A DNA stretch of 64,000 nt from Candidatus Omnitrophota bacterium (GTDB lineage Bacteria > Omnitrophota > Gorgyraeia > JAHIPI01), in NCBI GenBank assembly GCA_043800065.1, contig JAZDNG010000029.1, positions 2,837 to 66,836 on the forward strand, given 5' to 3'. The notes under the pieces were generated by a model. The model was not told the DNA's origin and made no database searches. It was given only the letters and a program-made list of their open reading frames with translations. Of the stretch, positions 36,573-36,902 are shown piece after piece. Every line of letters starts with the position of its first letter. Within the stretch, counting starts at the first letter, position 1. A program made the position numbers and the translations under genes.

Positions 36573-36902
36573 CAATATTGGTACTCCCCTCGCTCAGGTA
36601 AAATAAGTTTTAAAAGGAATCCGGTGATTTTCTCGCTCGAAAATGCACCGTATTCCTTTTAAAGGACATTAGTGATATAATAATATTGATACTTCTCCGA
36701 GCGACTGCGAAATTTAGCTCCGAACGAGCCAAAAAATCGGTTTATAAAAGGGCGAAATATGTCCGCGGAGCGGTCCGGCACCAATGGTGCCGGATGAGGG
36801 GGCATGGTAATGCCCCCGAGTTATTTCGCCCCCGATTTTTGGCGAAGTGAGAAGCGTTAAGAATTTCGCCTGGAGCGAGGAAAGTATCAATATTATTACG
36901 GA
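36573..36902. repeat. Hairpin-dense intergenic element with nested inverted repeats (MITE-like or structured-RNA-like)
   Basis: Outer inverted repeats 36573-36598 and 36868-36893, with a third direct copy of the same motif at about 36682-36711. Inner inverted repeats 36727-36742 and 36831-36842. Central perfect hairpins CCGGCACCAATGGTGCCGG (36774-36792) and GGGGGCAT-ggta-ATGCCCCC (36797-36816). A further hairpin at about 36607-36662. Confidence 0.5.

Follow-up and report, generated by a model that had tools for sequence, protein, structure and literature searches.

A previously undescribed family of dispersed hairpin repeats with a conserved fold in Omnitrophota, represented between rimO and uvrA

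Several families of small repeats with stable hairpins have been described in bacteria, and some of them have consequences once they are transcribed. Transcripts of ERIC elements (the repetitive intergenic consensus of enterobacteria) affect mRNA fate, the hairpins of Correia elements are cut by RNase III and can carry promoters, the QMITE2 hairpin reaches about -113 kcal/mol and is found mainly in 3' untranslated regions, and the SPRITE class is terminator-like (PMC10969869). In repetitive extragenic palindromic (REP) sequences a mismatch in the stem is itself a functional feature (PMC3333891). Here we report on a 64,000-nt stretch of DNA (the window) from a Candidatus Omnitrophota metagenome-assembled genome (MAG), in which the 343-nt spacer between rimO and uvrA (36573-36915) carries a member of a previously undescribed family of dispersed repeats of Omnitrophota, 190-300 nt in length. 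The window was assigned by its RimO, which in a homology search was 100% identical to an Omnitrophota MAG protein at NCBI. The Omnitrophota remain uncultivated, and their non-coding or mobile DNA is almost entirely unexplored.

Comparison of the intact unit of the window with a unit (unit B) of a related contig, L008, revealed compensatory changes in every helix, and the search for further copies was therefore made with the conserved core, CGGTTTMTAAAAGGGCG-N5-6-GTCCG; the strand carrying this pattern is referred to below as the pattern strand. The core was used in place of a terminal-repeat pattern, AATATTGRTACTYYYCTCGCTC, which had given no match in species-representative genome contigs. It detected nine loci in six MAGs, five of them labelled Omnitrophota and one Planctomycetia, with two copies, on different contigs, in each of three MAGs, and it matched 26 metagenome contigs. 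The sampled environments behind the contigs are groundwater and sediment. A profile built from 28 units (alignment A1) and run by nhmmer with --max added more divergent units beside the known ones, up to two or three units per contig. Including the homologous rimO-uvrA loci, these pattern and profile searches of genome and metagenome contigs yielded about 45 copies, almost all from Omnitrophota; a search for further copies had been suggested by the first-pass annotation of this DNA. The core pattern was not found in viral contigs, and blastn against phages and plasmids found nothing. Two copies from one MAG (L012 and L013) are near-identical inside the hairpin and unrelated outside it. The genes next to the units, such as RecG/RsmD, KsgA/GatC, ArgG, DapB and NikR, are ordinary, unrelated housekeeping genes, and all-against-all clustering of 451 flanking open reading frames (ORFs) gave no recurrent partner, only the synteny of the rimO locus. 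Among the 4227 families of Rfam none matched the units: the cut-offs were gathering thresholds for the window, E up to 10 for the spacer (matches at chance level only, E above 4) and E up to 1 for nine further copies. Among the papers searched we also found none linking Omnitrophota with MITEs (miniature transposable elements with inverted repeats) or structured RNA motifs.

All 32 trimmed units, 189-303 nt long, fold to one architecture, a long imperfect hairpin. From foot to apex it comprises a terminal stem, a GAGCGA/GAGCGA loop, A/U-rich helices (AAAAUUUAGCC with GGCGUUAAGAAUUUU), a 9-nt bulge, a helix P1, a UGUCCG/GAGUU loop and the apex. The terminal stem measures 15-22 bp in every unit; its sequence is wholly different between subfamilies while complementarity is kept, and each subfamily has sharply defined ends that fall at the hairpin's foot (for example AGCGCAGCAAAAGG...CCTTTTGCTGCGCT). 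The apex is of free length, with one to three hairpins that vary in number and length between copies, and some copies have extra hairpins inserted at two other fixed sites. Considering that the indels are not multiples of three and that the apex varies freely, the units contain no conserved ORF. A hammerhead core in the apex was considered by eye and rejected, because CUGANGA...GAAA is not matched by GAUGAG...CGAGUU and because the apex of group-2 units consists of one hairpin only.

The fold is conserved by compensating mutations. The RNAalifold consensus has 50 pairs, 36 of which show double changes; 93.9% of the alignment cells are paired, as against 72.4% in shuffles (none of 500 reached the observed value) and 40-55% with slid partners, and the covariation score is 0.561 versus 0.182. 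Helix P1 covaries through AU, GC, CG and UA types and is 99% paired. Unpaired positions are conserved as well. In alignment A1 the columns A201, G202, T203 and T204 of the GAGUU loop are each identical in 28/28 units, and the GAGCGA/GAGCGA loop, which can be represented as two G.A/A.G mismatch steps around a GC/CG step, is nearly invariant both on its 5' strand (G29 27/28, C30 28/28, G31 28/28) and on its 3' strand (G308 28/28, C309 27/28, G310 27/28, A311 25/28). The search pattern did not fix these columns. The invariance of the bulge and of GGGCG is partly ascertainment, since both are in the search pattern; in divergent units the bulge reads UUAAAUA or has a hairpin inserted in it.

The two strands of a unit are not equivalent. 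The pattern strand has 50 G.U pairs versus 22 A.C mismatches, it is more stable than its complement in 29 of the 32 units (by 10.7 kcal/mol on average), and the purine-rich GAGCGA loops, with tandem G.A motifs, are found on this strand only. The excess of G.U stems from units that are antisense to the neighbouring genes (30 versus 12), sense units being balanced (8 versus 8), and therefore the structurally constrained strand is usually not the mRNA strand. The units sit between co-directional genes, and in about 16 of 18 independent loci the 3' end of the unit is located -6 to +61 nt from where an opposite-strand gene has its stop codon, the sense arrangement being seen in only about two of the 18 (binomial p 0.0013). 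Adjacent units are always head-to-head, their 5' ends facing across spacers of 9-100 nt; such pairs occur in L008, L014, L020, L029, L030 and L033, and partially in L044 and the window. Since the members of a pair belong to different terminal-stem subfamilies, the pair is not a simple inverted duplication. Three features, namely the asymmetry of the strands, the biased orientation and the fact that pairing is always head-to-head, point to the recognition of one folded strand.

We consider that the units are probably non-autonomous selfish repeats, resembling MITEs, ERIC or the REP doublets forming hairpins (REPINs), in which the folded single strand is the feature under selection. Dispersal, near-identical copies in one MAG, presence and absence between close relatives, the lack of a gene and the lack of a constant neighbour all speak in favour, as do the fold kept by compensatory substitutions and the asymmetry between the strands, and the clustering of units together with mosaic debris resembles BOX/RUP/SPRITE repeats and bacterial interspersed mosaic elements (BIMEs) (PMC10969869, PMC3333891). 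The repeat would persist and spread as a selfish element, its folded single strand, whether DNA or RNA, being recognised by a trans-acting enzyme.

Nevertheless, a number of observations weigh against such an origin. No transposase or other candidate for a mobilising gene was detected in about 190 kb of flanks, and the fetched loci contain no gene for a REP-associated tyrosine transposase (RAYT) or Y1 HUH transposase. Copy number appears low, with one intact copy in the 64 kb and at most two seen per MAG. Target-site duplications are missing: with a boundary slack of +/-4 nt, the mean best direct repeat in the flanks was 3.29 nt, against 3.15 +/- 0.18 for a null of mismatched flanks, and even the near-identical copies L012 and L013 have none. 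In the RimO tree L001, the sister of the window, is cleanly empty at the rimO-uvrA junction though both subclades bear elements. The orientation bias and the strict head-to-head pairing are unexplained by a selfish-repeat model. Covariation of this degree, together with invariant nucleotides outside the pairs and apex hairpins free to vary in length, is also more what one sees in a functional RNA than in a decaying relic of a transposon.

The units may instead be genes for an independent structured non-coding RNA (ncRNA) of about 250-300 nt, with paired ends and an extended -10 promoter of its own, acting in trans or as a scaffold; its paralogues would be scattered in gaps between genes and the site at uvrA would be incidental. 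We hold this to be possible, though not probable. Very strong covariation, invariant loop nucleotides and apex hairpins of variable length would be expected of such genes, as would the better folding of the pattern strand in 29/32 units and the restriction of tandem G.A to that strand. Further, an extended -10-like motif, CGATGGYATATTGAGCG (TGnTATATT type), lies 12-55 nt upstream of units in L020, L035, L030, L033 and L044 and abuts the unit in L029, reading into the folding strand whatever the direction of the flanking genes, and the window has TGATATAAT at the equivalent place. Transcription of the RNA would be expected to begin some 7 nt past TGATATAAT, or past CGATGGYATATT. Pairing is possible between the leader segment CUUUGUG and CACAAAAG of the tail, and this would give paired ends to a transcript that starts after the motif. 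However, a sigma-70 scan upstream of the units returned weak best matches without a consistent position for most units, the 3' end has no terminator, and the spacers of 9-12 nt between paired units are too short for two promoters. Clean absence from the closest relative, the existence of truncated and mosaic copies and the failure of any of the 4227 Rfam families to match likewise count against a gene. Among known RNAs, 6S RNA, Y RNA, the retron msr-msd and the IS110 bridge RNA were considered and rejected, as the units do not appear to have a central bubble and show no neighbouring reverse transcriptase or recombinase and no large programmable loops.

A further suggestion, to which we give a similarly small share of belief, is that the family constitutes a class of mobile, self-transcribed rod-shaped RNA, or of folded single-strand DNA sites, that is specific to Omnitrophota and is not transposon debris. 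Such a class would bring together the promoter-bearing leader, the paired ends, the tandem G.A loop, the extrahelical bulge and the variable terminal structure; like attC it would be orientation-locked to the upstream stop codon, and the enzyme acting on it might be a recombinase, a nuclease or a reverse transcriptase.

The position of the units relative to stop codons may also be understood if they are domesticated, orientation-dependent terminators or insulators. In antisense orientation the GC-rich P1 (…CGCCC) followed by UUUUAKAAA, the bulge, has the shape of an intrinsic terminator, whereas in sense orientation the bulge interrupts the stem and transcription would pass, as is needed before uvrA. 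The 3' end of the unit at -6 to +61 nt from an opposite-strand stop codon in about 16/18 loci fits this proposal, and the consensus scan flags GCGGACATATTTCGC-CCTTTTATAA on the minus strand. In all five pairs found via one pattern-matching member (5/5), the antisense unit keeps the motif and the sense unit is degraded to UUAAAUA. In L033, L014, L029, L016 and L030 a canonical TTGACA-17-TATAAT promoter is present downstream of the sense unit. Between unit and start codon the window, L008, L044 and L020 have no more than a short tail containing CGGAGTGA, which in L044 follows the unit before uvrA and in L020 the unit before rsmD; tails of greater length, AAGCGGAGGCAACCACAAAAG..., are seen in L020, L030, L033 and L035. 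Yet the wobble pairing of P1 and of the helix next to it speaks for the other strand, the stem encloses a branched apex of 60-120 nt, which is atypical of terminators, and several antisense units (L022, L026, L035) leave no room for a downstream promoter. As terminator-like sites are also not enriched in the genome (29 versus 22.1 +/- 4.7 expected) and the invariance of the motif is partly imposed by the search pattern, we regard a terminator role as unlikely.

The first-pass annotation had suggested a MITE. A small non-coding hairpin repeat at many unrelated loci of related genomes, absent from the closest relative, was indeed found, and the units conform to the published definition in being under about 500 bp, in lacking coding capacity and in having terminal repeats within about 4-30 bp, although the complementarity runs beyond the terminal stem through the whole element (PMC10969869). 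The part of the suggestion that failed is the transposon signature: the check for target-site duplications gave a value at its null, and no related transposase was seen in the fetched loci. A classical MITE deserves separate consideration. Such an element derives by deletion from an insertion sequence and is mobilised in double-stranded form by a DDE transposase, which binds the terminal repeats and duplicates its target (for example TA). The size below 500 bp, the 15-22 bp terminal repeats, the A/T-rich ends, the intergenic location and the hairpin transcript agree with PMC10969869, three AATATTGATAC-type copies have TA on both sides, and there is presence/absence between relatives. Against this, where the flanking TA is changed it becomes CA...TG, so that pairing is kept and not repeat identity; the termini vary between subfamilies and the interior is conserved, the reverse of what binding by a transposase would lead one to expect; and compensatory changes keep complementarity along the whole of the 90-bp arms. 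With no duplication above the null, no related insertion sequence in the fetched loci and an orientation bias not expected for double-stranded DNA transposition, we give a classical MITE little credence, and continue to favour a selfish repeat selected as a folded single strand.

Within the window the spacer is a decayed head-to-head pair, consisting of one intact unit and a broken inverted copy. It runs in the order rimO stop, remnant of the inverted unit, locus-specific hairpin, TGATATAAT, intact sense unit, tail with GGAG and uvrA (Table 1). The first-pass annotation had described this spacer as dense in hairpins and inverted repeats, and all the repeats that it described are present: an outer inverted repeat (36570-36595 with 36873-36898, 26 nt, 85% complementary), a third copy of its motif (36678-36694, whose 17 nt are 100% complementary to 36882-36898), a nested inverted repeat (36750-36768 with 36813-36831) and two perfect GC-rich hairpins. 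Its interpretation as a single 330-bp element with one pair of terminal repeats has to be replaced by one intact 221-nt unit plus debris. The pairing of the supposed terminal repeat exists, but its arms are not the two ends of one element: the left arm is the leftover 3' end of an inverted unit, the right arm belongs to the intact unit as its 3' arm, and the true partner of the latter arm is the supposed third copy (36678-36698). The 12-mer AATATTGRTACT occurs in three exact copies, all inside the spacer, and the sole other match in the 64 kb has one mismatch; with at most one mismatch allowed, four matches compare with 0.88 expected, and none of 100 shuffles reaches four.

Table 1. Features of the rimO-uvrA region of the window
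Feature	Position	Strand	Evidence or remark
rimO	35214-36572	+	NCBIfam TIGR01125, E 1.5e-148
Remnant of second, inverted unit	36573-36603	-	about 30 nt; inverted repeat with 36873-36898
Separate hairpin	36609-36663		arms 36609-36631 with 36641-36663, 23 nt, 87% complementary
Extended -10-like TGATATAAT, candidate promoter	36673-36681	+	overlaps first bases of the unit, reads into it
Intact 221-nt hairpin unit	36678-36898	+	nhmmer E 6.1e-52 against family profile
Terminal stem H1, 5' arm	36678-36698	+	pairs with 36879-36898
5' GAGCGA of symmetric internal loop	36699-36704	+	opposite GAGCGA 36873-36878
9-nt bulge TTTATAAAA, 5' strand	36741-36749	+	unpaired in every fold
Helix P1, closing the apex	36750-36759 with 36822-36831	+	inverted repeat, fold, covariation
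Core loop, TGTCCG and GAGT	36760-36765 and 36818-36821	+	within P1
Apex hairpins	36763-36773, 36774-36794, 36798-36817	+	within P1; the last two perfect and GC-rich
3' GAGCGA of symmetric internal loop	36873-36878	+	column counts in alignment A1
Terminal stem H1, 3' arm	36879-36898	+	pairs with 36678-36698
Short tail CGGAGTGAAGCACAAA	36899-36915	+	17 nt, carries GGAG 36900-36903
uvrA	36916-39725	+	NCBIfam NF001503, 1475.7 bits

Folding of both strands, which had likewise been proposed, gave -144.2 kcal/mol for the plus strand of the whole spacer (z -9.70) and -145 kcal/mol for the minus strand (z -10.73), in each case better than all 100 shuffles; the folding energy of the whole spacer does not tell which strand matters. 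The intact unit alone folds with -109.2 kcal/mol as RNA (z -12.47) and -62.2 kcal/mol as DNA (z -11.25), and by the nhmmer profile it is the only intact unit in the window. The remnant, which begins directly against the rimO stop codon (TAA, 36570-36572), has retained no more of the unit than its terminal arm on the 3' side and the sequence complementary to the GAGCGAG loop (CAATATTGGTACTCCCCTCGCTCAGG); nhmmer aligns 36574-36603 weakly to profile positions 185-214 on the minus strand (E 0.56), and in L003, L008 and L009 an inverted unit begins at the equivalent spot after rimO. The separate hairpin was considered as another dispersed module and rejected, its left arm and loop being common only to the orthologous spacer of L005. 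The motif TGATATAAT was read from the sequence; the consensus scan did not call it (no -35), and we treat it as a candidate promoter. A scan of the spacer for tRNA and tmRNA found none.

On the reading as a selfish repeat, several local effects may be expected. The unit would separate rimO from uvrA by 343 nt, where the nearest relative has 1 nt and the genes are probably translationally coupled. It would place a hairpin of -109 kcal/mol in the uvrA leader and supply uvrA with the GGAG as ribosome-binding site and possibly with an extended -10 promoter. If co-transcribed, the long duplex would be a natural substrate of RNase III by analogy with Correia elements (PMC10969869), and processing of the co-transcript is conceivable on that model. 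The start of uvrA is at the ATG 36916, as alignment with L001 shows a matching N-terminus from there; the start of the longest ORF, GTG 36903, falls within the repeat tail and was rejected by the same comparison, and a Shine-Dalgarno-like GGAG stands at 36900-36903 upstream of the ATG.

Relatives' loci, taken from contigs encoding RimO homologues that were fetched after a homology search, show how variable this junction is. In the closest relatives, L001 and L002 (RimO 92-93% identical), the two genes are joined as TAA-C-ATG, with 1 nt between them and no spacer. L008 (RimO about 71% identical) has a 485-nt spacer with two units, one in each orientation, and L044 is a third rimO-uvrA locus of the L008 type, with two units in the spacer. 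In L003, L005 and L009 the unit motif comes right after the rimO stop and the contigs end inside the repeat, as assemblies commonly do at repeats. L005 and the window share the hairpin at 36609-36663, with the adjacent unit oppositely oriented in the two; the difference could be due to an inversion between the unit's own arms. Element-bearing loci are found in both subclades of the RimO tree (L009, L044 and L008 in one, L005, L003 and the window in the other) and L001 is empty, so that either ancient presence with a precise, clean loss in L001/L002 or repeated insertion at one junction has to be assumed, and we prefer neither. In more distant Omnitrophota outgroups (L045-L048) the genes after rimO are pgsA and pgpA instead of uvrA. 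The rimO/uvrA junction is therefore a synteny breakpoint of the clade, and, as judged from gene order in these contigs, the adjacency of rimO and uvrA is specific to the clade that carries repeats at the junction.

These loci also bear on the proposal of the first-pass annotation that the spacer might be a large structured leader RNA of uvrA, and on the wider possibility of a leader specific to uvrA and regulating it in cis, such as an SOS or damage-responsive RNA structure or operator. The unit does lie immediately upstream of uvrA, in the same orientation also in L008 and L044, and the minimum-free-energy fold has the GGAG of uvrA paired to ACUCC of the left remnant. However, the same unit adjoins many unrelated genes, mostly in antisense, and the closest relatives, with their 1-nt gap, have no leader at all; on these two grounds a uvrA-specific leader is largely refuted. 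In addition, L006/L007 carry a PDDEXK_3 gene here instead, the unit of L015 lies downstream of uvrA, and no cis-regulatory family of Rfam matches, leaving this explanation very improbable. The unit would be physically within the uvrA leader if rimO and uvrA are co-transcribed or if TGATATAAT is a promoter; its location there is best read as positional only.

Other insertions were seen at the same junction. In L006 (5387-5940) and L007 (4686-5239) a 125-aa PDDEXK_3 gene stands in place of a unit, with tandem repeats of about 24 nt (CACAGATGATCGCAGATTAGAAGA) on its left and inverted copies on its right, a different small selfish-looking element. In L004 (RimO 83%) the sequence after the stop codon, GATGAATGACGCGGGACACCTTTATGCTTCTCGT at 5390-5423, is unrelated to the unit, and the contig ends; it may be another repeat.

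Elsewhere in the window (1-64000) almost all long ORFs are on the plus strand with spacers that are tiny or overlapping, only three long ORFs being on the minus strand, at the 5' end (193-2981), and the 343-nt gap between rimO and uvrA is unusually long for the window. There are three tRNAs (45959, 61096 and 62281), and an RNase P class A RNA beginning at 63706 runs off the end of the window. A 91-nt spacer at 50606-50696 contains a GC-rich hairpin of about 50 nt (GTCCC...GGGAC), rich in CTCGCTCGCTC (= GAGCGAGCGAG on the minus strand), then a perfect palindrome AAATTTTTGC-AC-GCAAAAATTT, then GGAG and an ATG near 50697. It matches the 3' part of the unit weakly in the profile search (minus strand, E 0.076) and may be a degenerate relative; the listed ORF start, GTG 50639, is probably too far upstream.

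Some unit-bearing contigs have further features. An ORF6N gene lies between the head-to-head unit pair of L040 (4176-4721) and another beside the unit of L012 (982-1509); their domains match Pfam PF10543 (E 5e-36 and 3e-32), and the two genes share similar upstream sequence (GCGTCT.ATATAGTAGGG), an association seen in 2 of about 30 loci. In L036 another long near-perfect hairpin (1270-1377) is found immediately upstream of the unit; its sub-threshold matches to plant and animal microRNA precursors, on both strands, reflect a generic hairpin and not homology. L039 carries a c-di-GMP-I-GGC riboswitch aptamer at 339-475 (60.9 bits against a gathering threshold of 59). In L030 a mosaic at 7165-7250, downstream of the sense unit, combines a copy of the flanking module CCCAAGGCCGCAGCGTGTTTTGAGGCATGTGTGCAGTGCCGA, which L020 and L026 have too, with a stray 3' terminus, GGAGAGTATCAATATTA, belonging to the AATATTGATAC subfamily, and is evidence for nested or decayed insertions.

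The family offers a clean, alignable small repeat in which the fold is kept rather than the sequence, even though RimO is only about 70% identical between bearers, and its partner enzyme, if found, could reveal a new system of single-strand mobilisation or processing. In practical terms the repeat breaks metagenome assemblies, several contigs ending inside it, marks the synteny breakpoint at the rimO|uvrA junction and misleads ORF callers, uvrA being extended to a false GTG start. For uvrA itself, no special SOS leader needs to be invoked.

As to known systems, attC sites conserve structure over sequence; they possess extrahelical bases, their central spacer is unpaired and their terminal structure varies. 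The strand that folds lies antisense to the gene upstream, whose stop codon marks the beginning of the site. The units are comparable in that their fold is conserved, that they too possess extrahelical bases and a terminal structure that varies, and that the strand that folds is antisense to the gene upstream. Unlike attC, they do not stand in cassette arrays but among syntenic housekeeping neighbours, have no integrase nearby and are two to four times longer, and their termini (AATATTGATAC, AGCGCAGC and others) were found to lack the GTTRRRY of the R''/R' core sites.

With REP, BIME and REPIN elements the units share imperfect palindromes whose varying positions keep complementarity, inverse pairs with linkers (here 9-100 nt) and the absence of target duplications. 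Conserved mismatches occur in the units too, and by analogy they may have a role; recognition of a folded single strand, as in REPs, would fit the strand asymmetry. REPs are, however, 30-40 nt long with a conserved GTAG 5' of the foot (PMC3333891), whereas the units measure 190-300 nt and show no conserved tetranucleotide, and so no GTAG equivalent, in their 5' flanks or termini. They also pair only head-to-head and with members of different subfamilies, have no RAYT in their loci and appear to be low in copy number.

Correia elements of Neisseria and QMITE2 of Coxiella resemble the units as small, non-coding, intergenic inverted repeats whose transcripts fold into stable hairpins, but have conserved terminal repeats and target duplications (TA; 7-9 bp), where the units have variable termini and no duplication. 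BOX, RUP and SPRITE repeats of Streptococcus pneumoniae likewise bunch, insert in one another and leave mosaics (PMC10969869); their sequences and architectures are unrelated, modular or short, without a single hairpin with 90-bp arms.

In ERIC, as in the units, the whole element is one long imperfect palindrome and not just a pair of short terminal repeats, and both occupy transcribed intergenic gaps by housekeeping genes, have size variants produced by insertions at fixed internal sites and vary in copy number between lineages. ERIC are enterobacterial, 127 bp long and from another phylum, with no sequence similarity to the units, which differ in their length of 190-300 nt, conserved non-Watson-Crick loops, branched apex, head-to-head pairing, orientation bias and lack of a TA duplication. 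By size, sequence, missing GTAG and missing duplication the family is thus a member of none of the repeat families compared here, and, to go by analogy, it would appear to work most like ERIC.

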